Both the position numbers and the translations under genes were made by a program. A stretch of DNA of 63,867 bases, counting the filler, from Stramenopiles sp. TOSAG23-6 (Eukaryota), in assembly GCA_900128565.1 (NCBI GenBank). It is 3 parts of 3 records of this genome, joined end to end, with 100 filler letters (N's around TTAATTAATTAA, not from the genome) between each part and the next. Parts side by side here need not be neighbours in the genome. Positions count along the whole stretch, not along the records: positions 1 to 21,870 come from LT636022.1; 2 more parts are not named here. One strand, 5' to 3'. The notes beneath the pieces were generated by a model that searched no databases, was not told the DNA's origin, and saw only the letters and a program-made list of their open reading frames with translations. Below, one piece after another: positions 6,170-50,569 of the stretch; position 1 is the stretch's first letter, and each line of letters starts with the position of its first letter.

Positions 6170-8479
6170 TTATTGTAACATTCGGTTTATCGCTAAATTA
6201 ATATTCCCTCCACTAATTTCTAAGGATTTTCGAGCTTCATTATAGGAGGCTCCAGTAATAACAACAATTTGTTTTACTTTACATTCTCGCTCATGCTTAC
6301 TTGCTGCAATAGCCAATTCTGTATCTGACGGAGAGGTAAGCAAAGTATTTTCAAAACTTTGACAAATAGTTCTACGACTATTTGGTTTTGTACGAATATT
6401 TGTTTTAATTTGCTTCTTTGTTTTAATTCGCTTATTTGGATTGGATGGTGTAGCATCGGAGTTCATGCTAGATGCAGATCTTTTGAGCATCGAAAGAATA
6501 TTATTAGTCTTTTTGATATTATGTTTTNGNTTNCTTTTTTTTTTNCTNGTTTCGGGACATTCGACTTCCATGTTTTGTTAGAACATTCTTTGCTTCTACT
6601 ATAGCCTTTGCTTGTTTTTTAATACACGAAATTACTTCTTTCCCTTTTCTTGCAGTTACTACAGCATCTACAATAGGTGCTGGGTATTCATATAATACTT
6701 CAACCCGTTGTGCATCTCTGCGACAATTTGAAATGATATCATTATTAATACTTTTTGCACTCTTTCTTTTGCGAATTATACAAACACCAAACTTTTTTTG
6801 AACACTTGCCGGCATTTTCGATGGTTCATGAATCCATTCTTTTGTCACTTTTGAAAGTTCTGGTATGTACTTTCGTATAAATGTACCATACTTATCATGA
6901 TCTTTTCCTTGTTTTGTTACGGAGTACACTCTCATGGCATTAATACCAGTAACTCCACTTTGCATCTGTAGTTGAGGATAGTGAATACCAGGCTCATAAT
7001 CAAGAAAACAGCGAGCGAGATGTTTCCCTATTACACGCCAGTCTAACCATAAATTGTATGCAGCAAAAGAAACAACCATGTCATTTGGGAAAATATTTTC
7101 AAAAAGAAAATTCGTTAGGTTTGGAATTGCGTACGAAAAAAGAAACTTTAAAAAAAGAAAAAAAAAAAATTGTAAAATTAAAAAAACGTACATTGCTCGC
7201 ATTCGAAAATTTAACCACCCATGACGTGAAAGGCACCTCATACACGCATCAACCATAGGAAATCCAGTAAGTCCTTTTTTCCAAGCAACGAAATATTCTT
7301 CATTATGTTCACCTTTACCACAGCGAACCGTATCATAAATTCTAGACTGAGCATGTATTTAAGAAAATATTTCAAAAAAAATTTGTTAGGTACAAAATTT
7401 CGTACGAAAAAAAAATCGAATTTGAAAAAAAATAAAAACATACATGGTATTCAATATCAGGTTCACTTTCCAGCTTTTGTATGAAATGTGAACGCCACCG
7501 TAAACGAGAATGAAAACTTGCAAGTGATCTTGGCCAGCTGTCTTTAGAAAATGATCTACCTGCTTTTTTCTGTTTACGGACAAGTTTTTGCTTCTTTATT
7601 AATTCATGTACAACTCTTCGATTTGAGATATGTCCAAAAGTGAGATAGGCACTTACTGTATTGTAGAAAAATATTTCAAAATGTTTTTTGTTAGGTACAA
7701 AATTGCGTACGAAAAATAAATTCGATTTTTTTGTAAAAAAAAAAATAAAACATACATCGAGAACAAGAATTCCAAGCCAAGGAAGGCGATGAAATACCAC
7801 GTTGATACCCTTCTCCTCTCCTTGTCAACCAATTTTGAAGTACCTGCAGCGCGAGTGTCTCACCACCAGCTTGGCGTTCGACTCTATCTTCCTTATGGTC
7901 ATTAGAAATTAAACCAAGATCTGCAAGCTGAGCAGAAGACTGGATCCCACACGAAGGAAATCCACGACAAAGTTTAACAAAGTCACACGGACCAGGAGAT
8001 GGGTATTGTGGTTGTTGCATAAACTTATTATATCCTAATGTAAACTTGTCCCTATCCTTCAGCCCACGAGTCACACCATTTTGTGTAACTTCTTTGAAAT
8101 TAATCTTCATTTTTCGACAGAAACGTCGAACTCGTTTATCACGTTCAAAGGATTTTCCATGACCTGTTTCTTCATGAGCAAATACGCTTTTAATTTTCTT
8201 ACATTTGTTAAGATCGGCTAGAATATCAGTCGCTTCACCAATTCGGAAAATAATACATGGTTTGTCTTTCTCGTCGTCGAGCATTCCACGTATCAATTCA
8301 TCAAGTACTGATAGACCTTCGTTACAAAAGTTTATGTGACTACCATGGAGAGTTGGATGTGACAGCTGGTCTGGCTCATACATATAAATGATACAAAATG
8401 GACTACGTGCACGTACAGCGAGTGCTAGTGGTCCATTATCGTGAATTCGTGCATCCTTTTTCAACCAAACTACATTCAT
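6170..8479 (-). CDS. DNA photolyase/cryptochrome family protein, probably with a C-terminal UBA-like domain; exons 8479-7756, 7655-7444, 7352-7192, 7077-~6170
   Basis: Motifs VVWLKKDARIHDN, SCSRLSAYLTFG, WKKGLTGFPMVDACMR, WLNFRMRAMVVSF and FLDYEPGIH are contiguous after removing 3 inserts. The frame change near 6529-6548 lies in an N-containing homopolymer. Confidence 0.88.
7078..7191 (-). other. Family intron, GT-AT (114 nt, in frame, stop-free)
   Basis: GCA AT|GTACGT...AATGACAT|G GTT restores RMRAMVVSF. Confidence 0.88.
7353..7443 (-). other. Family intron, GT-AT (91 nt)
   Basis: TAC CAT|GTATGT...AAATACAT|GCT restores the frame into WKKGLTGFP. Confidence 0.88.
7656..7755 (-). other. Family intron, GT-AG (100 nt)
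   Basis: CGA T|GTATGT...AATACAG|TA AGT restores SCSRLSAYL. Confidence 0.9.
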
Positions 8480-12272: not shown

Positions 12273-12534
12273 ACTTAGAATACGTGGTAATAAAACTGAT
12301 TTTAGTTTGATTTCTTCTACGGTAGTTTGATAGTGGAAATTCAAAATGATGAACGGAAATTTGTAAATGGTACGGAATTTCGTACTTAATATTTCATTTT
12401 GACTGACTATAATTATTTAAAAAAAATAGGAAATCGAGCAGTTTTGTTCCTTTAGGTCAAAACTCTGAAAAAAGAAGATTTTTTTTTCAGAAATTCCTTT
12501 TATTTAAAATGTTATAATATTTCTATTGTATAGA

Positions 12535-13873
12535 TTAGAAACATTTAGATCTCACTATTGTTTGACCAACATCATCATATTCTTGTTTTGTAATTTTCAT
12601 ATTTTTAAATGTACTCAATGAAGCTAGCATTGAGCCTCCTATCCAAGCTCCATATTTTCTCTGTGAATCTGAAAATACTTTTGTAGGTATTTCTATACCA
12701 TTTTGGTACGAAATATCTTGTTGCAATCTATTTATATAATTGGGTAACATGGAAGAGCCTCCAGAAATTACGACTGCATCATATAAAGTATTGCGAGTAT
12801 CTTCATCACATCCTAAAATGCTATCCTGTACTAATTGTGCCACTCCAGCTTCTGAGGCAACTGTATTGTGAAAAAATATTTTTTTTTTTTTTTACCGAAA
12901 ATAAAAAAAAAATCGTTAGGTACAAAATTTGGTACAAAATATTTTTTTAAAATTAAAATTTTGAAATTGAAAACGTACATTCTCGACCTAAAATTTCTGG
13001 GTTAAAAAGCGCCTCAGTACAAGTATATCTAGAAGCAGGATCAATTTGAATGATCTCACCATCGGGTAATTCATAATCAACACCATATCCTCCATCTTTT
13101 AGCTCATTTTGCAAATGTAGAGAAACAGCACAGGTAGCTTCTTTAATTTTTTGAACAATTGACATTTGCGATCTAGAAAATTTTCGACCACGCGAAGAAA
13201 GCATTTTCTGTAAATGTTTATCAATTTCGAGGCCAGCAACTTTATTTTTTTGCGATGCATAGCGTAGACCATATCCTTCGAAGACGGGTAGGGTTGTTGT
13301 CGCACCACCGCCAGCCTCTACAGCTAACCCATTAGTTCTCCCAGTTGAAAATAGAGAAAGTACAGGCTGTGGTGCCACATAAAATCCATTCACTTTAATT
13401 TTTTCAAACATAATTCTACACATATATTCTCTATTCTTGTTATTATTTTGACAAGAATCTGTCAGTAAAACTGGAAGATTATCCACCTCAGGATCAACGT
13501 CCATTGCCTCATACAGTGCCCAATCCCATATTTGTTCAATTGATTCTCTTTTCCCCTCTTTTGAAGACATTTCTCCATTGACAATTGGATAAGTTAAAGA
13601 CATTTTGTTTCTACGGGATAAAGCTGCTTCACCAACAGCAAAACCTTTTTCACTGATTCGAGCAGATACGTCATTTATCCGTCGTTTTTTCTGTTTTCCC
13701 AAAGTTTTTTTTCTAGGTTTGTCGGAATTCGTGTCATCATTACTACCAAGACCTACTGCTGGTTGACCAACTACCGTACGGAATACTGACTGTGGTTGAT
13801 CTTCTCCCGAATAACCTACTTTAGTAGAGAAACTACCAGCATCTATAACGATGGTTTGTTTTACGCTCTTCAT
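12535..13873 (-). CDS. Actin-related protein; exons 13873-12979, 12860-12535
   Basis: IVIDAGSFSTKVGYSGED, YELPDG, VVISGGSSMLP and RKYGAWIGGSMLASLSTF...KCF. Confidence 0.92.
12861..12978 (-). other. Family intron, GT-AG (118 nt)
   Basis: GAA T|GTACGT...GTACCTAAC...AATACAG|TT GCC joins the two actin-like ORFs in frame. Confidence 0.9.
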
Positions 13874-14075: not shown

Positions 14076-16428
14076 TCAAAATTCCTGAAATGTAAAATAA
14101 TTGGTATGCTCTTTGAATCCATAATCAAAAGGACTATAATTGTAAAGACTTTGCATTTCATTTATGTCTATCCCACAAGTTTGCAATGACTTTTCTAGTT
14201 GCTCTATATAATGAAGGTTATCAATCCTTGTTAATTTTCGTTTCAATTTCGAATTTAATGTATCAAATTTTTTACTTTGTCTGGAGTGAAAGTTAACAGA
14301 GTCCTTGTACCATTTCTGTGTGTATGTAATATATAACATTGGCCTGATTACATTACTTTTGTTTTCACCTCCCCCATGTATTTTGGAAAAATATTATTTT
14401 TTTTCGGTAAAAATTTGTTAGGTACAAAATTTCGTATGAAAAAAAAAANGTNAAAAATTCAATTTTGAAAACGTACATGAGTTAATTTCATATCAAAAAA
14501 TATTGCGCCACCTGCATTAAGTTGAGGTGAAAGAATATATTTTGAATCTTCCCTTTTATTTCTATGTGAATTTATATGAAACCTTGTCGGGCCATGTTCT
14601 TGTTTTATATCTATAAGTGGCCAAAATGAAATTATGTATTTTGGAAAAATATTTCAAAAAAAATCGTTAGGTACAAAATTGCGTACGAAAAAAAAACGAA
14701 TTTGAAAAAAAATTAAAACATACATACCATGTGACTTTTGAGTTTTGCCATCCGAAAACAACGGCCCAGTATCAGCATAAAATGTAAACAATATATCAAA
14801 ATGAAAAATAAAATATGTATTCATATGGAAGATGAAAACATCATATATTTTCTATAGATTTTGTAATACAAAAAGGGATTGAAAGTATTCCTTTACAATA
14901 AGTAAAAAAAATGAATATTTCATACGAAAATTCATACCTAACAAAATAAATAAAGTAAAACATACATGGATTATGAAAAAATATTTCAAAAAAAATCTAA
15001 AAAAAATCGTTAGGTACAAAATTTCGTACGAAAAAAAAAAGACGAATTTGAAAAAAAATAAAACATACATGAGAATGCTGACTTTTTGTCTTTGCTAATG
15101 ATGTCACGGATGAGAGTATACCTATTTCAAAATCATCATTTCCAAGTATTGAATTTAATAAATAATTCACTACTTTATTATCAACCAGCCCCGGATCATC
15201 AAATGTATCGTGAAAAAATATTTTATTTTTATTTTTTTGTTAGGTACAAAATTTCGTACGAAAAAAAAAACATCAAAATTGAAAAAAAATAAAACATACA
15301 TGGTTTTTGTAAAGGTAGATGAACGAGATAACGACCCTCAGAGCTAATCTTTCCCCTAGGGGAATTGTACTTGTCAATTTTCGTTTTCGATTCGTCTAAA
15401 TATTTCTTGAATTCAATTTTTTGAGCTTTTTGAATGTCTCTCAATAAGGATCCATTTATCACGTTTTCTATTGCAACAACACCACATGTATCAAGTATTC
15501 GAATTGCATGCCCAAGTATACGTAATGTTTCGATACTCTCTTTGTACATCGATCGAATTGAACTTGGTATATAAACAGTTATTTTTTCTGTTGTACTACA
15601 CCAGTTTTTGAGTTTTTCGTCTATACTGTTATATTTTAAACGCCAATCAATATACTTTCCACTAAATGTCCAATCGAGAGGCTTAATAATGATACCATTG
15701 TCTTTCGCTCTTTGAATAAGTCTAGATAAATGTTGTTCACTTTGAACTTCTATAGTTCTATCAAAACCACAATTCAAGGCAAGAACTTTTTGGAATGTTG
15801 TAATTGCAGCTGAAAGAAAATAGGTTCTTTCATCCTCTTTTCCTAACCAAATGAGACGCATGTATTGTGAAAAATATTTTTCTTGTAAAATTTGTTAGGT
15901 ACAAAATTCACTACGAAAAAAAACTTCATACAAAAAAAAAAATAAAACATACATTTGCGTAATCGCAATGTCATACAAATTAGCCACATTGTATTTTTCA
16001 CGAGCAACATCAATGAATAGTTGAAGCGCAAGTTGACTCTTTTCTTTGTCAGAGTAGTGTTGATTAGATAAGTCAATTGCTTTACTTCGTAATGCTTTTG
16101 AAGTTAAACATTTGTATGGTTCCATCGCCCACGCCTTTACGACTTGACGTTGCTGTACTGTATCAGATATACCAAACTCAGATAAAGCTGCACCGGATTG
16201 AGATTCCTCCAAAATAGCAGAAAAAACTTCACCTTCAATATCTTCGTTCAATATTAATTTCGAACGCTCGGAACGCACGTTGTAATTATCAACGTCTCCA
16301 AGCAAATTATTCAACCAAACTACTATTTCAGTAGAACTCCAGCTTGACTGTGCTTTCTGATTTTTAACACATTGGGCATATAATACAACTACTAATGATA
16401 GATGAAGAGTAAATGTAAAAGACAACAT
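14076..16428 (-). CDS. PhyH-type Fe(II)/2-oxoglutarate dioxygenase with signal peptide and SAM-like N-terminal region; exons 16428-15953, 15859-15300, 15202-15069, 14776-14724, 14633-14477, 14375-14076
   Basis: After removing the inserts: QHSH-ADTGPLF (HxD), FWPLIDIKQEHGPTRF...SH, AGGAIFFDMKLTH-GGGENKS...RPMLYITY. All exon phases are compatible. Confidence 0.85.
14376..14476 (-). other. Family intron, GT-AT (101 nt)
   Basis: ACT CAT|GTACGT...AAATACAT|GGG restores the HGGGEN distal-His motif. Confidence 0.88.
14634..14723 (-). other. Family intron, GT-AT (90 nt)
   Basis: GGT AT|GTATGT...AAATACAT|A ATT; frame restored. Confidence 0.85.
14777..14965 (-). other. Second, abutting GT-AT intron segment containing an inverted family core
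   Basis: Starts GTATGTTTT directly after the preceding element and ends TTTTAT|GCT GAT, as the HxD motif requires. Confidence 0.65.
14966..15068 (-). other. Family intron, GT-AT (103 nt)
   Basis: TCT CAT|GTATGT...GTACCTAAC...ATAATCCAT|. Confidence 0.8.
15203..15299 (-). other. Family intron, GT-AT (97 nt)
   Basis: CCA T|GTATGT...GATACAT|TT GAT gives KPFDDP. Confidence 0.85.
15860..15952 (-). other. Family intron, GT-AT (93 nt)
   Basis: CAA AT|GTATGT...AATACAT|G CGT joins ORFs 15895-16449 and 15229-15861. Confidence 0.85.
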
Positions 16429-16808
16429 GATGGAACTTGAAAAATACACACTAGTACGATATTAGCTAGTACCCAATATCTGCACACAAAAAAAAAATCT
16501 AACAAGAACGACGAAATCTCCGAAAAAATGGAAAAAATGTCCGATGAGTGTTTTTTTTGCTCTCGTTAGGGTTAGGGTTGCCTTTGATGTTTTTTTAAGA
16601 AGCAAAGAAGGCCTGACAGGCTGACACAAGTGGATAATAGCGCGATAATAGCCCACAATGCATCGAATGTAGTTTTTGTTACTGGACAACAAAAATAGTG
16701 ACAGTTCATCACAAAAGAAATTTGAAAAACACGAATTTTCTGATTAAACTTAAATAGGAGATAAAACTGTTTTTTTTTTTATTTTCTTGAATAATATTAC
16801 ATTTTGCA

Positions 16809-17570
16809 TCAAACTGGTTTCTCAGCTGGTTTATCTACGTCTGAAGATACTTCATCCCCACTATGACTAGATGGCTGGTTATGTATTAAACCAAGCGAAG
16901 CAGCTCGATCCCGTAAGGCTAGAACTGACCGAACATCACGCAAATGTTGAATTTGTTCAAGAAATGGGAGGATATCTAATAAGGCAGTATCATTTGGGTC
17001 ATCTACCCAACCACAAATAGGCACTGCATTTTTCTCACATAGAGAGTAACAAACAGGAGAGTTATCAACTAAAAGAACTTTAGATTGGTCAGCTCGAACT
17101 TTGCTTAAATCTTTCATAAAACATCCAGCCACTTCAGTGCAGCTCTGACGATAATATCTCTGCCTTACAACTCCCTTAGTATCAATACGATCGACAACAG
17201 GATCCGCATATAGTCTTTTACTAGCTGTAAATATTGCAATGTTATACCACTGACTGACATTTTCTAAAAATTCAAGTAAATGAGGCCGACACGATACGTA
17301 AAAGGTACATAATCTAGAACCCTCGTCGAACACATTTACCATAAAATCATAGTCTGAAGTTGGCCGTGTTGTAGAATGTACAAGAGTTTCATCTAAATCT
17401 AACACGAGAGTACATCTATTATGCACTCGCGCACTTACACGCGACTTACCATACAATCGAGTATGACTACAGTTCCTTGATAGACGAGATTTGGTAGCAC
17501 GAGTCTTACCAGTGGACTCATCGTGTGGGAAAAGTTGTGACAGAAACCACGAAGCAACTGTCGAAGCCAT
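16809..17570 (-). CDS. FCP1/CTDSP (NIF) family HAD phosphatase, Dullard/NEM1-like
   Basis: LVLDLDETLVHS, RPHLLEFL, FTAS..YADPVVD and KDLS...LVDNSP motifs. Confidence 0.92.
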   Translation of the reverse strand: MASTVASWFLSQLFPHDESTGKTRATKSRLSRNCSHTRLYGKSRVSARVHNRCTLVLDLDETLVHSTTRPTSDYDFMVNVFDEGSRLCTFYVSCRPHLLEFLENVSQWYNIAIFTASKRLYADPVVDRIDTKGVVRQRYYRQSCTEVAGCFMKDLSKVRADQSKVLLVDNSPVCYSLCEKNAVPICGWVDDPNDTALLDILPFLEQIQHLRDVRSVLALRDRAASLGLIHNQPSSHSGDEVSSDVDKPAEKPV

Positions 17571-17890
17571 TTCTATACTTGTTTATATTACTATTCAATA
17601 TCGATGTGGGTTTCTGGTATCACCCAATTTTTAATCGTTTACTGTAGGTTGCTTGCCCAATTATTAATAAATAGTAGGGAATTTAAGCAAGAAGAACTTG
17701 GCCAAAAACCAGAATGTTCTGTGATTGTGAAGATCCGTTTTACGTTTTACACGAAATAAAAAAAAAAATTGCAATGAATTTTTTTTGATGTTGATTGATG
17801 TTTCAAATGTTTGAATTGAAGAAGAGTTCTAAATTCTAATTCTTCCTCCTCCTCGAGGCTATCATATTTAGAGACTGTCAATTATACAAC

Positions 17891-18989
17891 ATGACCCCAA
17901 TTGTCCAAGTGAAAGCTGGTCTTATGGACCCTGCGTATTTCTTAGGTCGCCGTGAACTAGTCCAATGGGTTAATGCTGAGATTAACACAAATTATCAGAA
18001 AGTGGAAGAGACTGCTTCAGGTGCAGCTGTAGTCCAGCTCTTAGACAAATGTTTCCCAAAAAAGGTTCCTATGCATAAAGTCAACTGGGCTGCTAAAGCA
18101 GATTACGAATATATTCAGAACTACAAAATTATCCAAAAGCTTTTCAACAAATTTAAGGTTGAAAAGCACGTTGATGTCAACAAACTTATTCGTGGAAAGT
18201 ATCAGGATAATCTTGAATGGTTACAGTGGATGAAAGCATTTTTTGAAGCAAACTATAACGAAGCTGAAGAGTACGACGCAGTAGCACGCCGCGCCAAAGG
18301 GAAAGGTGGCTCAAAAGTTAAAACAAATTCAGGTAAGCCTCTAGCTCGTGCACAACGTAAATTGGCAGCTACTCCAGCTCCCGGTGCTGCTGCTCGAAAA
18401 AACAAAAGTCCTGCTAAAAAAGTTCGAGAAGAGTCTCCTTTGAAAGCTGCTTCGTTGAAAGAAAATAATGTAACTTCTCATGTTGGTGCACCAAGACCCC
18501 CGGCTTCAGCATCATCTGAAGCATCAGCGGCATTGAAAGAAAAATGCAAAAATTTGAAAAAAACAAACGAAAAACTCACAACGAAGAATACTTCTCTAAC
18601 TCAGTCAAATGCCGAATTAAAACTAATGGTTGATGGACTCGAGAAGGAACGCGATTTTTACTTTGCAAAACTTCGAGAAGTGGAAGTAATGTTACAAGAC
18701 GTGTACGTTATCATTTCCATTTTTTACCAACATTTTTTTTATAGAAAATTTTGTATGTAACAAAAAAACATTACCAAAAAAAAAATCCTAAACTCTAACT
18801 CTAATTTTTACTAAAAAAAATATTTTTTCATAACTCATGGTGGACGGTAACGACAAAGATATCGAAAAGCCAGATGATGAATCTCAGGTCAAAAAACTTC
18901 TTGATAAGTGTTTTGCTCTTTTATACGCATCCGAAGAAGGCAGCGAGGATTCAACTACAGAACAAGAAACTGGACAAGTTGTTGCGTAG
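17891..18989 (+). CDS. EB1: Microtubule plus-end binding protein EB1 (RP/EB family); exons 17891-18702, 18839-18989
   Basis: CH domain (GRRELVQWVN...GKYQDNLEWLQWMK), EBH motif LEKERDFYFAKLREVE, and LLYASEEG in exon 2. Confidence 0.95.
18703..18838 (+). other. Diverged family intron, GT-AT (136 nt)
   Basis: GAC GT|GTACGT...ATATTTTTTCATAACTCAT|G GTG restores the frame; the next two AGs downstream are out of frame. Confidence 0.75.
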
Positions 18990-19054
18990 TTTTAAGTACA
19001 AAAAATAGTACGAAATCGTTGCGTAGTTTTAAGTACAAAAAATAGTACGAAATC
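18981..19054 (+). repeat. 37-bp perfect tandem duplication spanning the EB1 stop codon
   Basis: gttgcgtagttttaagtacaaaaaatagtacgaaatc occurs twice in tandem. Confidence 0.9.
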
Positions 19055-19325
19055 TCACTATACGTACAACACTGCGTAGTCGTCTAATTACTACTACAAC
19101 TATATATTAATATATAGCTATATGGTCTAGTACTCAAAAACGTTTCTGATATGATATAGATGTTATAACAAAGATAGGAGAGCAAGGCTAAACAATAATA
19201 AATGAAACATTTTTACAACAAAAATAAAAAGTGTTTCATCTCAAATTTATTTTGTTCAAGTTATTTACATTTTAAATTATTTGATGTTTTTACATTAATT
19301 TAAAAATCATGCGCATTCAGTTAAA

Positions 19326-19664
19326 CTAGTATACCTCAATGAAAGGAGGAGTAAAACTGAACTTAACGATATTTAAAAGTCTCAGGGCGACGAGTGTATT
19401 TACAAGGAGAATAAAGCAAATGACGGCAGTAATAGCGTACCATTTAGATTTTAAAGCCGTTTTACGAGCTTCTTTTCGATAGCCATTATTTTTTTGTTGG
19501 CTTGAAATGTAATGGTAACGTACTGAAAAGATACCAATTGGGAAAAACATAACTAAACTCAACCAAGATAACCACATATAACTAGGCACATATATTATAT
19601 CGTCCGCCAGACCAATTCTGTGCTGGACTGGAAGGTCCTGAGTAGTATAACTAAAATATTGCAT
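19326..19664 (-). CDS. CD225/dispanin (IFITM-like) small membrane protein
   Basis: VPSYMWLSWLSLVMFFPIGIFSV...G...EARK.A..SK followed by a second hydrophobic helix. Confidence 0.7.
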   Translation of the reverse strand: MQYFSYTTQDLPVQHRIGLADDIIYVPSYMWLSWLSLVMFFPIGIFSVRYHYISSQQKNNGYRKEARKTALKSKWYAITAVICFILLVNTLVALRLLNIVKFSFTPPFIEVY

Positions 19665-20136
19665 CCTTTTTTCAAATAACTATGTCTATACTTAAGAGAC
19701 TATATTACTTTCAACACTCTAGTATTGTGCCTATATTATGATCAATTCAACTGAGTTATTTAATGAATATCCGGGGCTGTGAAGCACTGTTAAAGAAACC
19801 ACCGGTCAGGCACAGTTGCAAAGAAGCCGCTGCAGGAACTGAGCGGTCAAGCTGTTAAATTCCTGAAAATGGTACCCGGATCACCACATGCCGAATGCCG
19901 AAAAATAAAAATTGAATAATTTTTCGCCCGCTCGCTCGGCAAAAAGATTTTTTTTTGAGTAGCATTTTTATCTCAGATCATCTAAAAAAGGTTCATAATA
20001 TTATTATTTAAACAGGTCTACTTGTGGTGAGCAATTATTATATAAACACAATATAACTGTCATGATTTGGGTAAAGGGTTGTGCTTAAGATTGGGTTCAT
20101 TACAGTGGTGCTTTTATTATTGCTAGTCCACAAAAG

Positions 20137-21785
20137 ATGCTACCCAAGTTGAGTATTTCACTTCCAGAAACTGAGAGTACGCCGTCTCGTAAGTCTTATA
20201 AACCCCTTTCTCCTCTTTCAACAAAGCGTACGTTCAGCGGCGTCGGATCACCATTATCTCGTCGTCCAAGTAAGAAAGTGCTTGAAACACCAAATCATTC
20301 TTTTGTAGATATAAAATTACTTGAACGTATCTTTTTAGACTTGGATCGCGATGGAGATGGTTTAATATCTCGTGATGAGTTTAGGGAAATCTGCTCTAAT
20401 ACAGATTATTTAAATCTCAGCCCAGAAGAAGTAGAGCGAGTGTTCCGTTGCATGGATCGTTCTGAACGCGGTGTCCTGAATTTTAAGCAGTTCAAAAAGG
20501 CAATTCGTCGAAGGAGGTTTATGTCGAGTATAGTGAGCACATATCACGTCAATTTTTTATTCAAAGTTATGCCAAACTACGACTACACAAAGTCGACAGC
20601 TGTGAACTATAAATCTGGTGACAAGACGTTTCATGGTGATTTTGCTAGTATTCGTAAGAAACTTGACTATTCTTATCATGTAAATTATTGTAAGAAACGT
20701 CAGTTGTGGCAGGATGCGGTAATTAAAAGTGTTGCTTCTCGCGGCGAGAGTCAACCAAATCCTTGGGTTGTTTACACATGTGGTCCAATGGGTGCTGGTA
20801 AAGGCTATGCTCTATCGTGGATGTCAAGATTTGGTTATTTTCCTCTGGAAGACATAGTGCATGTTGATCCAGATCATTTTAAACGCTTGATGCCTGAGTG
20901 GAAAGGATATCTGGAACATGTTTGTTTTCATCATATATTTGAAATTTATTTTTTTTCGTACGAAATTTTGTACCTAACGAATTTTTTTCACTAAAAAAAA
21001 TATTTCGAAATATTTTTTCACAGTATAGGATAATGAAACAGCTGGAACTCACTGTCACTTAGAATCTGCATATATGCAAGAGATTGCACAAGAAGTCGGT
21101 TTACAAGACTCGGTAAATATGTGGATTGATGGTAGTCTTCATGATGTACGTTTTCATTTGAATTTCAAATTTTTTTCATACGAAATTTTGTACCTAACGA
21201 TTTTTTTTTTGAAATATTTTCCCAAAATACACGGTTTATGGTTCTCTCAGGTATTTACCACATTACGTCTACGATTTCCTCAATATCGAATTGCAATTTT
21301 TTATGTATATTGTAGTGAACAAGAAGTTCGAAGACGCATGTATGTTTATATGAATTTCTAATTTAATATTTTTTCATACGAAATTTTGTACCTAACGAAT
21401 TTTTTTTTGAAATATTTTTTCACAATACATCGCTAAACGAGCTGAAGAAACTGGGAGAGTCATTCCTGAGAGTATGATTCAAAATTCTCTAGATTCACCA
21501 ATCAAAAGTTTGCGTTTACTTACACCTAAATGTGATTTTGTTGCTCAAATTAATAATGAAGGTCCAACTCCTATTCTTGAAGCTTTTGAAACTATTGACA
21601 GATCAGGTCGTTGGCAACTCATAAGTAATCAATTTTCAACTGATGCAACGCACCCTCTTGATTTCCCAGAAATTTTATCGCCTCTTTTTGTTTCAAAATT
21701 ATATCCTGTACAATGTAAAATATCAAATAATACTGCATTTGGGCTAGTAGTACCAGATGAAGAAAATTGTAAATTGAGCAATTAT
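20137..21785 (+). CDS. EF-hand + zeta-toxin-like P-loop kinase protein, 3' end lost in gap; exons 20137-20919, 21029-21145, 21233-21339, 21431-21785
   Basis: EF-hand DRDGDGLISRDE; P-loop GPMGAGKG; HVDPDHFK; WIDGSL; RAEETGRVIP. Confidence 0.85.
20920..21028 (+). other. Family intron, GT-AG (109 nt)
   Basis: GAA CAT|GTTTGT...CACAGTATAG|GAT restores the frame. Confidence 0.88.
21146..21232 (+). other. Family intron, GT-AC (87 nt, in frame, stop-free)
   Basis: CAT GAT|GTACGT...CCCAAAATACAC|GGT gives DGSLHDGLWF. Confidence 0.78.
21340..21430 (+). other. Family intron, GT-AT (91 nt)
   Basis: CGC AT|GTATGT...AATACAT|C GCT gives VRRRIAKRAEETGR. Confidence 0.88.
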
Positions 21786-21814
21786 GTATGTTTTATTCAT
21801 CGTACATTTCAAAC

Positions 21815-21970: not shown

Positions 21971-22648
21971 GAATTATACCAAAGAATGCTCAAAGATGGT
22001 AACAGCAATTCAAAAATTGCTTTAATTTTTTTTTCTTGAAAACAAAATAAAAAAATTTTAATTTCAGATTTTTTTTTGTCGAAAGAAATGATGATTAACT
22101 CTGATCGATCAATGTTCTTCTATGTATATTTGGATTCCATACCATTTTTTCTATATAAAAAAAAATGAGAATTTCCATTTCTGTTTTTATTATATTCAAA
22201 ATTCCAGAATTTTTCAAAAGTAGACAAAAATGCTACAAATCTTTGAAACTTAATAATTTTTCACTTGTAAATATTTTCTGAATTCGTCTTTAATTTTGAC
22301 ATCTCTAACGTGTTTTGTATATAACAACAGTTTTGTATGCTTGTCATGTCTAGATTTTCTTATATTGTTGTATTATATTTCAAAAAAAAAAAATTGTTAG
22401 GTACAAAATTTCGTACCAAAAAAAAATTAAATTAATTTTTTTTTAATTTTATGTTACAAAAAACTGTTTTTTTTCATTAGGTTACACATTTCGTATGAAA
22501 AAAAATATAATGAAATATGAAAAAAATACCTTTAAATGCACGTTTTTTAAACGTAAAAAAAAAAGAAGATGAGTTTAAACTAGATGGCACACACATGTCT
22601 CCGCAATATTTGACTGTATTGACTAGTAGAGGATTTGAGAAAATGAAT

Positions 22649-26760: not shown

Positions 26761-29700
26761 TTATACTATATTTTCGTCGTCTAATGAATCGCCAGTATCC
26801 CCAGCTAATTCTGAAAATGCAGAATCAAAATCAGCTTCAAAACTGTCTTCTTCATTTTTTTCTTCAGCTTTGTTCGTTTCGTCAACATTAGATTCTTCAT
26901 ATTCGACAACTTCGATATCTTCTTGAGCATCATCATCATCAAGTGGGTTTTCAAACGCACTAAAGTCAGCCCACCTGCCATCACCTGCATCATCATCACT
27001 TCCGCCACCATCACCAGATATATATGTATTATCTGCCATCCCGTATTGTTGCATAAGAGAAGATATATGACCTTCGTCTTCATCAGATGAATCATCAGAA
27101 GAGTCCATATCATGATCACCTCCATTAAAAGCATACCAATCAGAACCACCATTTGCACTGTCACTGTTTCCAGCTCCTACAGTACTAAACATGCCATCTT
27201 TAATGTTTAGCGAATCACCACCAGACACCATACCAGCAAAATCTGGTCTATTATTATTATCAAGACTTGGAGAATTTGGAAGACCACCAAAACTATCGCC
27301 TGCCATTCCGAACATTTGGGATTCAGTATTAAATATTTCATCACTTTGAGCAAGAGCATTAATTGCTTTAAGATCCCCACTCGCGAGCCAACGTTGCCAT
27401 GCTTCATGCACTGAAACGAAATCATAAATATGGATACATTGAATCTTTTCTCTTTCTGCCTTTTTGACAGAATCTTTTGGATCTACTTCTTCCAACTTTT
27501 GTTCTTTTAATTGATCTTCAGCCATTTCGACGGCGGATTCAATACAATTTGCCATAATATGACAATATCCATAGTTGCCTTGAGCTTTTGTAGGCATCTT
27601 CTTAGGGGTACTGATTTTTTCGTCAGATGTCGAAATATCTGTTTCCTTATTCATTTTTTCATTCGAAACTACAGATATATTTTCTTTGTCATCATAACAA
27701 GTTAGCAACCGATCAATTAGTCCATAACCACTAGCATTAGATTCACTATCCGTTTTCCCATCCTCTACAGACGCAAAAAGAAGTTTTTGTATAAAAGACA
27801 TATTATTCTGAATGACTGCCTCGAGTATAAAGACAACATATCGATGAAGCATATTGCACCAGGGAAAATCGAAAAATAAATCAAAACAAATCTGGACAAT
27901 TCCGTTTCTACCAAGATTAGCCAGTAATAAATCTGTATTAATAAAACCTAATGTGATTACTAAAGACATCAATTGAGTTAATAAAAGTCGACTGGGCCCT
28001 AAACGATACATATATTGATGAAAATATTTCAAAAATTAAATTTTTTTGTTAGGTATGGAATGTANTAATTAGGTACAAAATTTTCTATGAAAAAAATAAA
28101 CTCAAAAATAAGAATGAAAACGAACTCTTTGACTCCATAAGTTGACATCATTGTTCCACATGAAGTCTTCAATACCTTGCATAAATTTTCATGCTGTGAT
28201 AAAATTGACAAAACTACTGGAGGCATTGGAGACGCTGTAGAATACTTTGGAAGTTGTCCCAATTCCTATATTGTGAAAAATATTTTTTTTTTTTTTTACC
28301 GAAAATAAAAAAAAATGTTAGGTATGAAATTTCGTACAAAAACAAATATGTAAAAATTTAAATTTTGAAAACGTACAAGTGCTTCCGTTGCATTCATACC
28401 AGAAACATGAATTCTTTCCCCAGGGGAGGTAGCAGATAATTCAATGTCATTTTGTTCCTGTATATATCTCTCTTCTCGATTCAAGTGCTCACGTTCAATT
28501 CCTTGTGCTATATTCTCTAATAAACATACCAAAACTTTAAGTGCTGATTCTTGTGCTCCTCGACTACGTCGTTTCATTTCTACATGTATTGTGATTTTTT
28601 TTTTTTAGTTTCAAAAAAAAAAAAATCGTTAGGTACGAAATTTCGTATAAAAACAAATGTAGGTAAAAAATTGTATTGTAACAAACGTACATCTACAGAG
28701 TCATCTAATAAAACTGAAGTCATCTGACAAACAATTTCCACGAGTCTTTCACAAGAGTCTTTTTCAAGGAGGATATCATATACTGTGAAAAAATATTTTT
28801 TTTTTTTTTTTACTGAAAAAAAAAAAAATCGTTAGGTATGAAATTTTTTTTCGAGAAAAATGTGGGTAAAAATTTAATTTTGAAAAACGCACATTCACAC
28901 GAACTGTGGGTGTGACATGAGTGTGTACAGCAATACTTTGCAACACTTCTGTTGCATTTTGCTGCATATCAATCGGACAATCCGGAGAAATACAATCCAA
29001 CAAAACTTTAATAATAGCTGCATCACCGCCAAAAGCTTTGGGTTGACAGTAACTTTCTTGAGCTTCAGCAGTGGCTGTGCTATTCAAATCTGTAGCTAAG
29101 TCTTCTAGTATGCCATCGACGTTATCTGTATCACCTTCATTATTTTCTGTATCATTTGTCTCGCTATCTTTACCATCTGTATCAATGGAAGTCCTTCTAA
29201 AAGACGAAGTAAACGAGTCTAACTCGTTATTCAATTCCATTTTTTCTTCTGCTACATTAAGAGGTAAAGCCAACATAATTCGCAAAATTTCGGCCACTGA
29301 ACAATCACCCATATGTCGAACAAATTTTGGTAACATATTTGAAGCAACATCTGTATCCAGAAAAAGTAACACTTCCTGAGGTTTTCGCTGTGAAATCATT
29401 TGTAACACTTTACAAATATAACCAGATTGCCACGTTGGAAGTGGCGCTTTTTGCTCTAGAATGTTGAAAATGCTCAACAGAAGATTGTTATTATCGAAAT
29501 CAACAAGAGCATCAATAATTGCTGTGACATCGCAACAAATAATCTCACACGCCAAGTATGGGTACTTAAGTCGCTCAACCTCGGTTGCTGTATCACTTGG
29601 AGGATCCACTATAAAACTTATAAGGCTTTGTAAAGTCTCACCTTTAGTGAGATATTCGATTAAATTGCTATTGAGTCCTTTTACCTCTTGTAAAAGTTCC

Positions 29701-30232: not shown

Positions 30233-32097
30233 ATGATGGGGACTCCGCCAGTCCTCTCGTATACAGTCCGTCGAGATCCTTTGTTTCAAACAGAGCGAAA
30301 TGAATCAGATAATAGAGAAAGTGATCGAGACATTGTTAGTATTTTCCCTGTATATAAGCGACGATTTTGGCTTCTGTTTTTATTGTCTTCTTCAAGTTTT
30401 TTACAGTCTTTGTACTGGATGACATACTCCACGGTACGTCATGAAGTTAAAGAAATGTATCATTGGTCTACCGATAATGTATTTGACCTGGTGACATGGA
30501 GCCAAATTGTTTATATTCCTCTCGCTTTTATCGTAGGCCCTTTAGACCATCATGTTGGCTTAGTTGGGAACATAACGATTTCCTTTATTCTAATTGCACT
30601 TGGTTCTTCCATCCGCTGCATCCCAGCGAGTTCAGAAGTATCATTAATTCTTGCCCATGTTTCACAGTTTGCAATTGCTTGTGCTGGTGCAATTGTCGTC
30701 ACATCCCCCTCAAAGTTATCCGCAACATGGTTTGGATCACGCAACAGAGTTGTAGCAACTTCAGTGATTATTGTTTCAAATCTTCTGGGTATTGCAGCAG
30801 CCCTTCTGATACCCTTTGCGGATATGAATTCTGTAGATATCCGTCATTTATTACACATGCAGGCGATTGTGGGTGGTGCATTTGTGCTTTGTTCAATACT
30901 TGATTTCATATGTTGTGGATCAATACCGAAAGAAGCTCCAAGTCGATCTGCATGCTTACAGCGTCAACGAAGAATTGCTACCAGAAGTGGATCAAGAACC
31001 GAATGTAGACAGCGTTTTAATGAAAATGAAGATATTTCATGGAATAGTGCAGTGCATCAAAACTCAGAAGACAGAGTTGATAAAACATGTACGTTTTCAT
31101 CATGAATTTTAAATTTATTTTTTTCGTATGAAATTTTGTACCTAACAACTTTTTTTTTTTTTCACAATACATGCCTGTGCCTATGTTTAGGATGTTCGAA
31201 TATTTGCGCTGAAGTTCCAAAACTATTGAAAAACTATAATTTTATGCTGTTAGCATGTTTTTACGGATTGAGTCATGGAGCTTATGTTGGTTGGATTAGG
31301 GTTTTAACCCCATTGATGGTTCGAAAAAATAGTGGTGCTCATACAGAATCCGATTTACTCGGCCTAACTACAGTCTCTTGTGGTGTCGTTGGTGGTGTCA
31401 TTGGGGGTATTTTTGGATCGTGCTATCTTTCAAGATTTGGCTCAGTAAAAGGTTTGATGGCATGTTTGCTCTTGTTCTCTTCAATCTGTTTTTCTATATT
31501 TGTTTTATTTGCAAATGATCCTTTTGGATGGTGTCCAACAAATGATGTGAGTGCCTTTAATGTTTTTATTGCTCAAAACGAAACCCCAAATGATGATGTA
31601 TGGATTCTTCATAATAATAAGCTAGTTATGAGAATCCTTTTTGTATCAAATGGATTAGGTTCTTTCTTTTTACTCGCTACAGCAGGTTTGTGTTATGAAA
31701 CTGCAGTAGAATCTGTGTATCCATCAAATGAAGTATCAACTAATGCAACGCTAATGCTTACAATGCACATTGTAGCTGGTATCTTTGAAATAGTCACTAA
31801 AATGATCACAGAGGAAAAAGATATCCTCAACTGGATTCTTCCAATCAGTACCTTATTTTCTGTCTTTCTTCTTCTACCTTATGTATGTTTTATTTTTTTT
31901 AATTTTTTATCTACATTTTTTTTCGTACGAAATTTTGTACCTAACAAAAATTATTTTTTTTTTTTTTGAAATATTTTTCCAAAATATAGAAAGAGTTTCA
32001 TAAAAGGACTCTTGTTGATGAAGGGCAAACAAATAGGCACAGAGTTATGGTTTATTCTCTCTCAGAAGAAGAAGATGAAAGTGCTACAATATTTTAA
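30233..32097 (+). CDS. MFS transporter, SLC49 (FLVCR/DIRC2)-like; exons 30233-31088, 31173-31882, 31990-32097
   Basis: VYKRRFWLLFLLS, PSKLSATWFG..R..AT, YETAVESVYP..E and multiple TM helices. Confidence 0.88.
31089..31172 (+). other. Family intron, GT-AT (84 nt)
   Basis: ACA T|GTACGT...AATACAT|GC; using the next AG downstream would create TGA. Confidence 0.85.
31883..31989 (+). other. Family intron, GT-AG (107 nt)
   Basis: CCT TAT|GTATGT...AAATATAG|AAA gives PYKEFHKR. Confidence 0.88.
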
Positions 32098-32441: not shown

Positions 32442-32526
32442 AAAAAAATCTCAAGAGAGATCAAGACCTCTCTATCGTAAAGTCGCTGAATAAGTCAGCA
32501 ATGATAAAACCATTGCAAAAATTATC

Positions 32527-35500
32527 ATGACAAACTCTAAATGTATAGTAGATCAGTTTGTAGATAAATTGCGAGAGCATTATCACGAACGCCATAGTCA
32601 TGGAAATGTTACTCAGAGCGATGATTCATGCAAAAACATTCTATTGCTTTTTAGAAACCATATGCCTTCAATATATAAGCGATTTGTTTCGCCCCATGTT
32701 AGGGCTGCTTCGCGGGAGGCAAACGCAAAACGAACATCTCTACCACCTCCCCGTCATATAGTGCCATTTTGTACAATGCTGAATCTGTTATTGACAAAAG
32801 CTGTGTGTCCACACTCCATTTCTATTTTCCATAGCTGGCCTTTGGAAGAAAAGTCGTTTGCTCAATTTTTCCAGTTATACACTTTACTTGGTTTACAACA
32901 ATTCAAAATACATCACCATATAATTGCAGATACCCTCCTGTTACTTACACAAGTGCTATATGAATATCAACTACTTTCTTTTGTGTTATTGTTTGAAGAT
33001 GCAACACTATTGTTACAAGACCTGATAGTAGCCGAGGAATTAATTCAGCGAGCACCAGAAAAATTTTGTGGGCTTGAAATAGCAAGTTTCTGTACATTTT
33101 CTAAGAGTTGCAAGCGTCAGTGGGTAGAGCATAATAATAGTAATAAAAGAAAAGAAACAAAAAAATGTAAAGTCCCGGGCGATTCTCCAAACAGAAATTT
33201 TTTACCTTTAATGATATGGCTTCCTGGAAAAGGAATAAAAAGTGCATGTGAAGCAATTACAAAAGTAAGACTTCTTAAAAGAGCTACACAGTGGATTTTA
33301 GCGGGTATGTTGGTCCCTGAATCTGCCCAACAATTAGCGCTTTCAATGCCCTCTACAATTTCAAAGCCTCCGACGAATTCAGTACCAAACCCTAATTCTA
33401 TGTCACCACCTCCACTCATTGCGACAGAACGTGAAGAAACACCTACTTCTACTGCAAGAAATTACTATGCTGGTAATGGGTATCAATTTATTGTTAGTAG
33501 CACAGGTATAGTTGACATGTTATGGTCATTAACACAAGCCTCTATTAATAGGTGTGCAAACAATATTGTCCAGAAAAAAACGAACACAGAAAATTCGAAC
33601 TCAATAAACAATTATTCTACTTTCACTTTACAGTTACATGTAGCGACATCAACATTACGACTCATTCAAAGTATGCTTATTGTGGGAGGTATTATATATA
33701 ATGATATTGATGCCAATATTGGTACTTCTATAGCTGGGACAGGATTCTCTACAATATTGACTTCTATTTTGAAATTTCTTGAAAGTTTGCATGAATATGA
33801 CAGACAAAATATTGGTATTGATAATAGCCCTTCTAATGATGTAAGTAGAATAAGATCTATTATCTGTGATATTGATAAAGCAGCTTCGGCATGTATTGCT
33901 CTCTGTCTCCGAATAAATTTTTCGCATTCAGTTAGTCAAAAATGTTTTGGTTTTAGTACGTGTCCAAATGCAGTTACCAGTGTTATATCATCAAATATTG
34001 CGACTATTATAAGAGATCATCGGCATAAATATGGATCAAATAATGCATCTAGAGATGCATCCAATTCTATTTTGATGAAAACTTCTGGTAATTATTTATT
34101 GCTTGCTAGTAATATTTCTGACATTATAAAGGTTATTGTAAGTACGGTCCATTCAACACATGCGTTGCAATTACGTGTCACTTTATCACAAACTCTACGA
34201 AAAATGATTGACACAAATCTCATAGCTCCTGTCCGAGCGATGGATATGATAGGATTGTTAATGCGCGTATTTATTAAAGAGGAATATGATACAAAACATA
34301 TTACCAAAAATACCAAAAATACCAAAAATACCAAAAACACCAAAAATAGAATGAATAATGATTTTGATGACAATGTATGTTTTTATTTATTTTTTGAATT
34401 TCGATTTTTTTTCGTACGAAATTTTGTACCTAACGTTTTTTTTTTGAAATATTTTTCCAAAATACATGTTCATCATGTATTTAGATATGAAGTGAGAAAA
34501 AGTATTGTACAATGTATAGTATCTGTACTAGATAGTGTTTCCGAGGTAGATCGAGTGAATATATTAACAATTGCGAATGAAAATTTTGTCGGAAATTCCC
34601 GGGATAAACAACATGATACATGTAGTACTATTCAGGTAACAAATATTAGTAGAAATAAAGGTAAATCAACTCGAAAGAGAAAACGAAATCAAACAGAAAA
34701 AATATTGAAATGTCAATCTAACCCTAACCCTAATGATAATTTCGAAAAAAAAAAGAAGACAGTTCACAATATGTCTCCATTATATTTCAAATTCAAATCG
34801 ATGATTAATAATGCAATAGAAGCATCAACAGAAATTCAAAGTATGTCGCATATATGTACAGTGCTTATTGCTTTGTTACGAGTATATCATTATAATAATG
34901 TTAGGGTTAATGCGATGGAGGATAGAAAGGAAAGTAACCCTAACCCTAATCATCAGTGGTCTGACCCTGGTACCCAAGAAAATAGAACCACTGATGCTCT
35001 GGAAAATAGAAATATTGATAACCCTAACCCTAATAGTAAATCTGCAGCATTTTGTATAATACAATGCTACTTGACCCTTCTGAAATCTGAAGGGTTTTGT
35101 ACTCTTCTGGAAACATCAGACGAAAACGAAAGATTGACAATTTCAATAGTGAGTGCGGCACTTGATGTATTTTTTATTTTTTTTCAATTTTTTATATATT
35201 TTTTTTTTTTTGAAAATTTTGTACCTAACAAATTTAAGTTTTTTTTTTTGAAATATTTTTTCATCATACATGCCGCACACGAAATTATCATTGCTTTATC
35301 AGGAGACTGTATAGTGGCAGATTGTTTACAAGAATGGAATATCCTGGCAAAATTAACTTTTCGTGTAGGCTGTTGTAAACAAATATTAAACAACTTTCAC
35401 TTTGAGAATTTGGAGATTTTTGAAAATTTTGTGCCGATTCCACTTCGTGGGATTTCTTTCTGTCTTTCAGTTTTACCTCTAGTGCTTTCAAAGATGAAAT

Positions 35501-43465: not shown

Positions 43466-43555
43466 GTATGTTTTATATGAATTTCTAATTTAATATTTTT
43501 TTCATACGAAATTTCGTACCTAACGATTTTTTTTGAAATATTTTTCAAAATACAA
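43466..43555 (+). other. Family intron with uncertain 3' end (AA at the acceptor position)
   Basis: GCG T|GTATGT...GTACCTAAC...AAAATACAA; the downstream sequence does not continue the ATR kinase. Confidence 0.55.
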
Positions 43556-44928: not shown

Positions 44929-46033
44929 TCATTTTTTTTTACTTCCTTTGTTTTCTTTCTCGGTACTTTCTATTTGAGTTTCATTTTTTTTTCCTCCTTT
45001 CTCGCCACTTTTTTCTTTTGAATTCATAAGCATTGTAGCACCTAAAGCACCAAGTTGACCAAAGAATTCCGTATTATTCCAAAATTGAAGTCCAAGATTT
45101 TCCGCAAAGATTTTATCGCAATCACTATGGTCGTCATCTCTTCCCGCAGCATCACCAACATAAAAACTCTTTTCTATACAAGGATATCGCTTTGTTTGTA
45201 AGTATTTTGGTAATAATAAACTGAGCAGTTTCCATAATGGGTGATTGCCACGTGTCAAACAATCAGTACAATTATCAGGAACTTTTTTATTTTTGATTTC
45301 ATGGGAACTCCATTTCCGAAATGCATCTTTGCTAGTTGCAACAAGAAAAAGAATTGGACATGGTAATTTTAAATGATTAAAAATAGATTCCATGCGAAAC
45401 ACTTTTTCAGATATAGATTTTTCAATTCTATCAATGCGTTTTTTTCGTAAAGAACCTTTCATGTATTTTGGAAAAATATTTCAAAAAAAATTCGTTAGGT
45501 ACGAAATTTCGTACAAAACAAAATTCGAAATTGAAAAAAAATAAAACATACAACTCGTCCGGGTGTTTACCACGGCCTGCAATATTAGCACCATTACTAA
45601 TAATCACAATTTGGTAACCAGCAGATGCTACAGTGTGTAAACTTTCACTTACACCAGGCATTAAATCACGGGGTATAGATAGTGGTGGAAGAACCTTGCT
45701 CCATGAATTGCCCTTGCAGATGCAACCATCAAAATCAAACGCAGCTATCGGTAAAACATTCTCATGTAACTTTGAAGAATGTGTCAACTGATCTATTGAA
45801 CCTTCAAACCAACGTACGAGGCACGTTGACTTTGTTTTCTTTCCAGAGGATAGTTTCACACAGTGTGCCGACCAATGCTCTGGTAGTTTACAACAATTGA
45901 ACGTTGGTTTACCGACACCTACTACTCCACTTTTTCGTATAGACGCAGACTTCATGAAATCGAATGCATTCTTCGGTTTAGAGGCAGACTTTTCTTCCAG
46001 GCGCATTCTTTTTGTGGGTCTATTCTCTGACAT
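44929..46033 (-). CDS. PNKP-type DNA 3'-phosphatase (HAD); exons 46033-45552, 45460-44929
   Basis: IAAFDFDGCI, GYQIVIISN and FYVGDAAGRDDDHSDCDKIFAENLGLQF. Confidence 0.88.
45461..45551 (-). other. Family intron, GT-AT (91 nt)
   Basis: GAG TT|GTATGT...AAATACAT|G AAA; the exon ends in TT, so the boundary cannot slide to AT-AC. Confidence 0.88.
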
Positions 46034-49999: not shown

Positions 50000-50569
50000 T
50001 TATTTCTGTTTTTTTTGCTGTAGTTTTAACCCGGAAATTTTCAATACAGAATTTGTACCAAATTTCGTAGTTAACAAAGTTCGAATTTTCTGCTGAGTGT
50101 CACCTCCTTTAATATTAGGAGTATTTTTGACTTGTTTTGATCCCACGGCTCCCCGCCACTGCGTTTCCCTCTGTAAGTTTACATTGTATATCCAATATCC
50201 AATGGATAAAAGTGGAAGCAATAGTGTTAACATCAATGTTTTCCCAGTAAGAAAGCAAGATACCAAGGCTAATGTAAACAAAGTACGCATGAGATATGTA
50301 ATTAGGTTATCCTTGACTACCGGAGAGATTCCTGAAAGTGATAAACAACCACCTGATTGATCTCCATTACTGGCATCCTTCGCTAAAGAATATATAATCG
50401 TGGATAATACCATGAAGCAAAATGAAGTCACTCCTGCGTATTCATTGATTCTATTGTAATCTATATGGAGAAAATAAGCTAAAGTTTTAATTGACAAAAG
50501 AAAACCCGTTGCGAGAAAGATCAAAGTTACAGGCATTAAAATATCTTTTTCGTAACTTGAAGAAGACAT
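50000..50569 (-). CDS. Hypothetical multi-pass membrane protein
   Basis: 189-aa ATG ORF with about 4 hydrophobic segments. Confidence 0.6.
   Translation of the reverse strand: MSSSSYEKDILMPVTLIFLATGFLLSIKTLAYFLHIDYNRINEYAGVTSFCFMVLSTIIYSLAKDASNGDQSGGCLSLSGISPVVKDNLITYLMRTLFTLALVSCFLTGKTLMLTLLLPLLSIGYWIYNVNLQRETQWRGAVGSKQVKNTPNIKGGDTQQKIRTLLTTKFGTNSVLKISGLKLQQKKQK

Follow-up and report, generated by a model that had tools for sequence, protein, structure and literature searches.

Two intron units lie end to end within the HxD motif of a probable stramenopile dioxygenase gene

We analyzed a 63,867-nucleotide (nt) stretch of DNA from Stramenopiles sp. TOSAG23-6 (three parts of three records of assembly GCA_900128565.1, joined end to end; hereafter the window) and found two intron units lying directly one after the other inside a gene for a probable PhyH-type Fe(II)/2-oxoglutarate dioxygenase. 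Together they form a composite of 292 nt (103 + 189; 15068-14777 on the minus strand), which has no exon between its two parts and divides the catalytic HxD motif, H-A-D, precisely between the codons CAT and GCT. The upstream unit (E1) is a full-length sense copy of a short repetitive element, copies of which form the introns of this gene, and the downstream unit (seg2) is degenerate. We put at about 60% the probability that the composite represents two independent units of an introner family resembling miniature inverted-repeat transposable elements (MITEs), derived from two insertions into one and the same AT dinucleotide. The original prediction had described two abutting units with a zero-length exon inside the HxD motif, and a new reading of the sequence reproduced both the coordinates and the letters.

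The family to which E1 belongs is a short element of approximately 84-118 nt with the form GTATGTTTT...CGTACGAAATTTTGTACCTAAC...AAAATACAT, present in about 30 copies in the window. Its 22-nt core has 23 matches with at most 3 mismatches, compared with 0.00 expected. When up to 4 substitutions are allowed, the number rises to 27, including one palindrome echo and one reverse copy, the latter in seg2. An nhmmer profile made from 20 family copies returned 31 matches at E < 1e-3, corresponding to 30 copies, one of which is split by a run of N. For 22 intervening units (21 family copies and the 292-nt composite) we asked whether removal restores, in the sense orientation, a frame that stays open for 105 nt or more on either side. 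It does so for 21 of them, the composite included. Twenty of the 21 family copies tested by frame are in sense, while the remaining one lies at the end of the window and is not assessable.

We derived the statistics of the family ends from 22 delimited sense copies, E1 included. All of them start with GT, within a GTAYGT or GTTTGT sequence, and all of them carry a CTAAC motif 27-55 nt from the 3' end. The last dinucleotide is more variable: AT in 15 copies, AG in five, AC in one and AA in one. Examples of the copies are those at 7353-7443, 14634-14723 and 34375-34467, and the AG-ended copies are those at 7656-7755, 12861-12978, 20920-21028, 28266-28376 and 31883-31989. In some copies, for instance 7656-7755, 12861-12978, 20920-21028, 43466-43555 and 45461-45551, the dinucleotides on the two flanks are not the same. 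The last intron base of the family seems to be free, and to drift toward G. The terminal inverted repeat is short (7-9 nt, GTAT(G)TTTT ... AAAATAC) and the core itself is near-palindromic (GTAC-G-AAATTT-T-GTAC). As had been proposed earlier, the symmetric family ends, (AT)GTAT...ATAC(AT), read GT...AT in both directions.

The exon sequence around the copies points to a preferred target. AT directly precedes the intron in 18 of the 22 sense copies, C occupies position -3 in 11, and G is the first exon base 3' of the intron in 14. We read the family as a MITE-like introner element, GTAT...ATAC, whose insertion at a favored C-AT-G site duplicates 2 bp, the AT, so that the element together with one copy of the AT would make a GT...AT intron, which is spliced out. 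The prevalence of AT at the 3' end would therefore be due to the duplicated target being AT. We considered a 4-bp CATG duplication and rejected it, because C precedes AT in only 11 of 22 copies and the C of ...ACAT lies within the element in 18 of 22. U12-type introns were also discarded: the donor is GTATGT-like rather than ATATCC-like as in the U12 consensus, and the position of CTAAC relative to the 3' end is that given above.

Within the composite, E1 (14966..15068, minus strand) begins with GTATGTTTT and ends in ATCCAT. It matches positions 1-92 of the family profile (nhmmer, 41.0 bits, E 7.3e-12), and its core, which includes the CTAAC branch motif (15009-15030), matches the family core exactly. 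The closest relative of E1 in the window is the copy at 42289-42388 (87%). The flanks of E1 are C-AT ... AT-G, where AT is the end of the His codon and G is the first base of seg2. The boundary between the two units reads ...ATCCAT/GTATGTTTT at 14966/14965, with one unit's 3' splice site juxtaposed to the other unit's 5' splice site.

Seg2 (14777..14965, minus strand) also starts with GTATGTTTT, and the 3' end in use is TTTTAT. Its first 10 nt are identical to the sense start of the family (GTATGTTTTA), and no sense-strand family match is detectable in it with nhmmer at E <= 10. The sense comparison with the family consensus is likewise not significant, since 96 of 500 shuffles reach the same score. 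Beyond the 5' terminus and the reverse-oriented core described below, approximately 140 nt of seg2 have no match in the family or in the window, and its 108-nt 3' part likewise occurs nowhere else in the window. A family-like 3' end, GAATACAT, is present within seg2 (14815..14822, minus strand) and is followed by a 38-nt intron tail. Its use as acceptor is ruled out by the exon spacing in an RNA contig (see below) and by the reading frame. We also rejected a tandem duplication of one intron, as the sense similarity between E1 and seg2 is not significant (156 of 500 shuffles).

A family core in reverse orientation lies within seg2 (14918..14942, plus strand), where it forms one arm of an inverted repeat with the core of E1. 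It reads TTCATACGAAAATTCATACCTAAC on the plus strand at 14919-14942, with 4 mismatches to the 22-nt core, and agrees with the reverse-complemented consensus at 24 of 28 positions. None of 500 shuffles reaches this score, and none of 500 reaches that of E1 against seg2 in antisense. With nhmmer the reverse core scores 13.7 bits (E 0.0023), as compared to 11.1 bits for the strongest palindrome echo from a true sense copy. The inverted core that had been placed at about 14919-14942 is therefore above chance, but not strongly so. Since the match includes the CCTAAC side and no sense match occurs in the same place, we favor a real reverse core. The additional claim that this is the only antisense core inside a coding sequence is true within the window.

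The role originally assigned to this core fared less well. Seg2 had been suggested to be an insertion in antisense orientation that functions as an intron, and the reverse core agrees with this idea. However, instead of a full-length similarity between seg2 and the reverse-complemented element, only 28 nt (24 identical) align; the first 10 nt correspond to the sense 5' end, and the profile alignment in antisense, which spans positions 34-85, includes a long insert running into E1. Moreover, an antisense copy lacks both the CTAAC branch motif and T-tracts in its transcript orientation, and among the remaining copies in coding sequence that were tested by frame there is no antisense one. The case for seg2 as an antisense insertion turned intron is weak.

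To restore the motif, all 292 nt have to be lost, as the original prediction had stated. The spliced translation, which we produced with a script, aligns along the catalytic half of the protein with 15 homologues, and the segment QH-SHADTG does so without gaps (QH-WHADAG, WHSDTG and WHRD... in the homologues). Transcription evidence comes from a contig of a poly(A) metatranscriptome (X6 record 9, 478 nt, depth 4.46). Its letters 131-288 correspond to 14476-14633 with 4 differences, and its letters 341-471 to 15068-15198, in exon 2, with no differences. Between these two pieces lie 52 letters and one ambiguous C, which equals the 53 nt of exon 3. This spacing agrees with the loss of both the intron at 14634-14723 and all of 14777-15068, and leaves no space for a micro-exon within 14777-14965, which had been named as an outcome that would contradict the prediction. 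The exon spacing thus fits a mature RNA that lacks all 292 nt. From our reading of the letters by eye, retention of either unit would introduce a stop codon.

Support for part of the genomic arrangement comes from another study, in which a contig that is either unspliced RNA or DNA (X8 record 25) is unbroken over 14718-14870 with 2 differences, so that the non-family tail adjoining exon 3 is real. Runs X1 and X2, which contain 0.98 of the window words, may be the source of the window assembly. Among the contig matches listed, neither 15069 joined to 14965 nor 14966 joined to 14776 is represented. Rows of DNA run X3 such as '15070 to 14965, goes back 106' have short sides (31) and intervening letters that are not known, and we set them aside as other family copies mapping to the locus.

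How could two units come to lie end to end? We propose that two separate hits on one AT, with which the CAT codon of the catalytic His ends, would have produced two independent intron units in direct succession. E1 would be an ordinary sense copy, and seg2 a much more decayed or rearranged unit, which keeps the family 5' terminus and the reverse core and whose unique tail would provide the branch site and the TAT 3' end. In each family intron, the G just inside the 5' boundary and the C-A-T at the 3' end would rebuild the preferred C-AT-G; 18 of the 204 CATG sites in the window do span an element boundary. Because the boundaries of the element restore its target, and because copies cluster and this gene contains five of them besides seg2, a further hit right at the edge of an existing intron is foreseeable, and such an insertion places a 3' splice site directly before a 5' splice site, with a zero-length exon between them. 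The tandem is an expected by-product of target choice, not of a special mechanism. As E1 matches the profile over its full length and seg2 does not, E1 is probably the later arrival. The suggestion that E1 inserted at the donor of an older intron agrees with the C-AT-G site of E1, in which seg2 supplies the G as its first base; its order of events is less secure, since the shared AT fits either order.

The anatomy of the composite and the target pattern are direct observations. Several points nevertheless weigh against the interpretation that we build on them. No allele without E1 or without seg2 was found, and we infer the two separate events. The antisense signal is short and exceeds the best palindrome echo by only 2.6 bits. 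On its transcribed strand seg2 has no CTAAC, and its branch-site candidates, TTCAT and TTGAT at 24 and 18 nt from the 3' end, are weak. The 52 letters of X6 record 9 were taken as exon 3 by their length and not by their sequence, and an intron-less DNA allele of a relative would give the same contig. No contig among the matches listed bridges the E1/seg2 junction (14965/14966), which is based on the assembly of the window itself. Finally, the duplex between the two cores discussed below is a thermodynamic prediction only.

We weighed four other explanations against two independent insertions. Seg2 could be an old intron, either a decayed family member or of other origin, in which the reverse core is a chance or palindromic resemblance and on whose donor E1 landed. 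The near-palindromic family core does produce echoes of up to 11.1 bits from sense copies, not far below the 13.7 bits of seg2, whose first 10 nt are moreover those of the sense 5' end and which has no other family match. We consider this explanation unlikely, because the match takes in the orientation-specific CCTAAC, because its score is never reached in 500 shuffles, and because echoes always accompany a stronger sense match in place, of which seg2 has none at E <= 10. Alternatively, a single event could have brought in E1 and seg2 together as a composite or fold-back unit, for instance by aberrant transposition, gap repair or template switching in which a sense copy became linked to an inverted piece. 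Such an origin would account for two inverted cores that lie 66 nt apart and are 84% complementary, and for the single AT between the units. The arms have however diverged (21 of 25 positions), the sequences flanking the cores are unlike each other, E1 is complete with both ends present, and the 108-nt 3' part of seg2 lacks a second copy in the window, all of which makes a joint arrival very unlikely.

The junction, or the first 95 nt or so of seg2, could also be an artifact of assembly or amplification, such as a repeat-induced join or a chimera, in what is apparently a small, single-sample data set. Neither 14871-14965 nor 14965/14966 is covered by independent contigs among the matches listed, the window contains runs of N, and the family is highly repetitive in the same samples, with word depths of up to 25,108 compared with 5-9 in the unique bins of run X3. 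An inverted chimera, on the other hand, would copy nearby sequence exactly, while the two arms are only 84% complementary; the independent X8 contig confirms 14718-14870, including the non-family tail beside exon 3; and exon 3 follows exon 2 directly in the RNA but not in the DNA, so that an intron must lie here. An artifact is highly improbable. A last alternative concerns the boundaries rather than the origin of the units, which could be cut as AT...AC, 2 nt upstream of GT...AT. AT-AC is a known splice pair. It is also named in the portion of PMC1557818 that we consulted. Because of the repeated AT, both readings yield the same mRNA, which counts also against the boundaries that we assign, and 18 of the 22 copies have AT before the GT and 18 of 22 have AC at positions -4/-3. 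Cut in this way, E1 would have CC and seg2 would have TT as its last two bases, and an initial AT would be missing in 4 of 22 copies. In contrast, GT is present in all 22 copies within its GTAYGT or GTTTGT context, and of the 7 copies with a last base other than T, 5 carry G and hence canonical AG, as selection on the 3' splice site would give. We therefore prefer GT...AN boundaries and regard AT...AC as quite improbable.

Each of the two units has a donor and a YAT end, so that removal is possible in either order or together, with the same resulting mRNA. The predicted fold of the RNA suggests which route may be used. The 292-nt RNA has a minimum free energy of -50.1 kcal/mol (z -5.32), and none of 200 shuffles is as stable; by comparison, the values for three lone family copies are weak, between -9.5 and -12.8 kcal/mol (z -1.3 to -1.9). 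The two cores were also recovered by an inverted-repeat search (pair I1), with arms of 25 nt that are 84% complementary (21 of 25) and separated by 66 nt, the E1 arm lying at 15009..15033 on the minus strand. A duplex between the cores, of 25-26 bp, is predicted in both the minimum free energy and the centroid structures, and it leaves the inner 3' and 5' splice sites in the 66-nt loop. In this model, we infer that the CTAAC branch motif of E1 is masked by pairing with the reverse core of seg2. Masking would favor one-step removal or the prior removal of seg2 over recursive splicing that starts from the upstream unit. In the first route, a single intron would extend from the outer GT (15068) to the TAT at 14777; in the second, seg2 would leave first, which would free the branch site of E1, and E1 would follow. 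According to the model, these are the likelier routes.

A stronger version of this idea is that the composite is a transposon-made complex intron with AT 3' ends, in which the order of removal is set by RNA structure: the downstream unit would leave before the upstream one, or both at once via the weak branch site in the tail. We regard this version as doubtful. If true, it would represent a natural case of structure-gated splicing with a zero-length exon, and of a spliceosome that accepts a last intron base other than G.

The family shares several features with the introners of Micromonas, Aureococcus, dinoflagellates and Amoebophrya, which are also short, non-autonomous repeats that occupy intron positions in genes unrelated to one another. 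Their terminal inverted repeats are short, part of a splice site is provided by the target-site duplication, and the frame is restored on removal. In the portions consulted, PMC9860276 describes introner families in which one or both splice sites derive from the target-site duplication, and PMC7789003 introners that carry both direct and inverted repeats and whose boundaries are non-canonical and ambiguous. Unlike those introners, the family described here duplicates a 2-bp AT, and most of its copies (15 of 22) end in AT and not in AG, while it keeps a yeast-like GTATGT donor and the CTAAC branch motif. A limited search of the texts of PMC9860276, PMC7789003 and PMC12130899 found no pair of introners placed end to end with a zero-length exon, and in the text of PMC12130899 that was searched the words 'nested', 'tandem' and 'antisense' have 0 occurrences. 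A motif-based literature search gave only unrelated primer matches among the matches listed.

Two other systems resemble the E1/seg2 junction. In zero-nucleotide recursive splice sites (ratchet points) of Drosophila and vertebrates, a 3' splice site is directly followed by a 5' splice site, as it is here, and removal of the upstream part regenerates the donor; according to the portion of PMC5126111 consulted, ratchet points lie in very long introns and are conserved. The composite differs from them in that it measures only 292 nt in total, both halves are self-sufficient introns, stepwise use is only a candidate route, and the junction is apparently transposon-made. Fungal stwintrons, including the [D6,7] 'sensu lato' forms with abutting donors in Lipomyces, are likewise complex introns removable in two consecutive reactions or in one. 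In the sections of PMC7138796 and PMC8469720 consulted, some of them are repeated and internally symmetrical, and a stwintron in the strict sense has an internal intron that splits the donor, branch or acceptor element of the external one. The composite is not a stwintron sensu stricto, as E1 ends just before G1 of the seg2 donor and no splice element is split. Moreover, the stwintron units of Hypoxylaceae are without flanking duplications in the same part of PMC8469720, as opposed to the AT duplication of the family described here.

Introners are a leading explanation for bursts of intron gain, and this locus illustrates a consequence of their target choice. Since the boundaries of the element rebuild the preferred site, introns can stack end to end, even within a catalytic motif, and leave the gene unharmed. 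With two complete units and one predicted masking duplex in 292 nt, the composite offers a compact natural test case for joint as opposed to sequential intron removal. It also bears on how a spliceosome that tolerates ...AT picks the right 3' end among many YAT triplets. Probably more deserving of study than the tandem is the GT...AT pattern that runs through the family, together with its secondary change to AG, and a genome-wide non-canonical 3' splice site would be the more notable of the two.

The gene that hosts the composite runs on the minus strand from approximately 16300 to 14076, and its C-terminal half probably encodes the dioxygenase domain. Exon 1 lies at 15859-15300, exon 4 at 14633-14477 and exon 5 at 14375-14076. 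Exon 2 (15069..15202) ends in CAT, the codon of the catalytic His, the AT of this codon being the shared target, and exon 3 (14724..14776, 53 nt) starts with GCT GAT, the A-D of the motif. Besides the composite, four family introns, all on the minus strand and all supported by the nhmmer profile and the frame test, interrupt the gene: between exons 0 and 1 (15860..15952), between exons 1 and 2 (15203..15299), between exons 3 and 4 (14634..14723, absent from X6 record 9) and between exons 4 and 5 (14376..14476, with two N inside), the last three being supported also by the alignment with homologues. At three other junctions of the spliced translation, which are likewise free of gaps in the alignment, the conserved residues are PF, HG/II and H/GG. 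Exon 4 alone, rather than the spliced protein, gives a weak match to Pfam PhyH (PF05721; 14.8 bits, cut-off 22). A HMMER search with exon 5 returned 149 relatives, and the four relatives tested all pass the Pfam PhyH cut-off (29.7-42.8 bits); for one cluster member the source gives the name 'ectoine hydroxylase-related dioxygenase (phytanoyl-CoA dioxygenase family)'. Protein word searches with exons 1, 4 and 5 gave no match, and no predicted protein that crosses the junction. At three of the four homology-checked intron sites of this gene (14477/14375, 15069/14776 and 15300/15202) the intron is preceded by C-A-T, which is a histidine codon at two of them, the catalytic His included. The position of introns after C-A-T, and hence after His codons, would be a side effect of the C-AT-G target.

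The rest of the window is AT-rich eukaryotic nuclear DNA (GC fraction 0.28-0.42 per 2 kb) with long open frames and genes such as those for an actin-family protein, an ATR-like kinase and a protein kinase; no Rfam family has a match anywhere in it. Family copies are clustered along the window (variance/mean 2.16 in 2-kb bins). The dioxygenase gene contains five copies and seg2 within about 1.6 kb (14376-15952), a SAPS-domain gene has four copies in 0.9 kb (28026-28892), and three more occur in 0.5 kb at 20.9-21.4 kb (20920-21430). The 13-kb open frame at 50810-63775 carries one copy only, at its very end; its 4,321 codons (50810-63772, plus strand) have no Pfam match at E <= 1e-5.

The family or its close relatives are very abundant in seawater DNA and RNA data. 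In bins that contain copies (14453-21800; runs X3, X7 and X8) the word depth is in the thousands, with maxima of 25,108 in X3 and 7,131 in X7; depth in such repeat-covered bins is uninformative on the 292-nt locus. As an exact pattern, the family core has 0 loci in metagenome contigs and 0 in viral contigs, and a search of metagenome contigs with exon 1 for orthologous or polymorphic loci gave 267 pattern matches, none of which was confirmed.

Some copies differ from the rest. Core-like fragments of the family occur outside coding sequence in either orientation (12369-12392, 22363-22512 and 50052-50080), and among them the pair at 22363-22428 and 22472-22512 is without a 5' end. The copy at 28026-28125 is diverged and its branch-site region is doubled (...GTACCTAAT..(N)..CATACCTAAC). 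Finally, the 93-nt copy at 34375-34467 is stop-free in the frame of the surrounding open stretch of 1,051 codons (32494-35649), so that its retention would lengthen the protein by 31 in-frame residues without breaking it.

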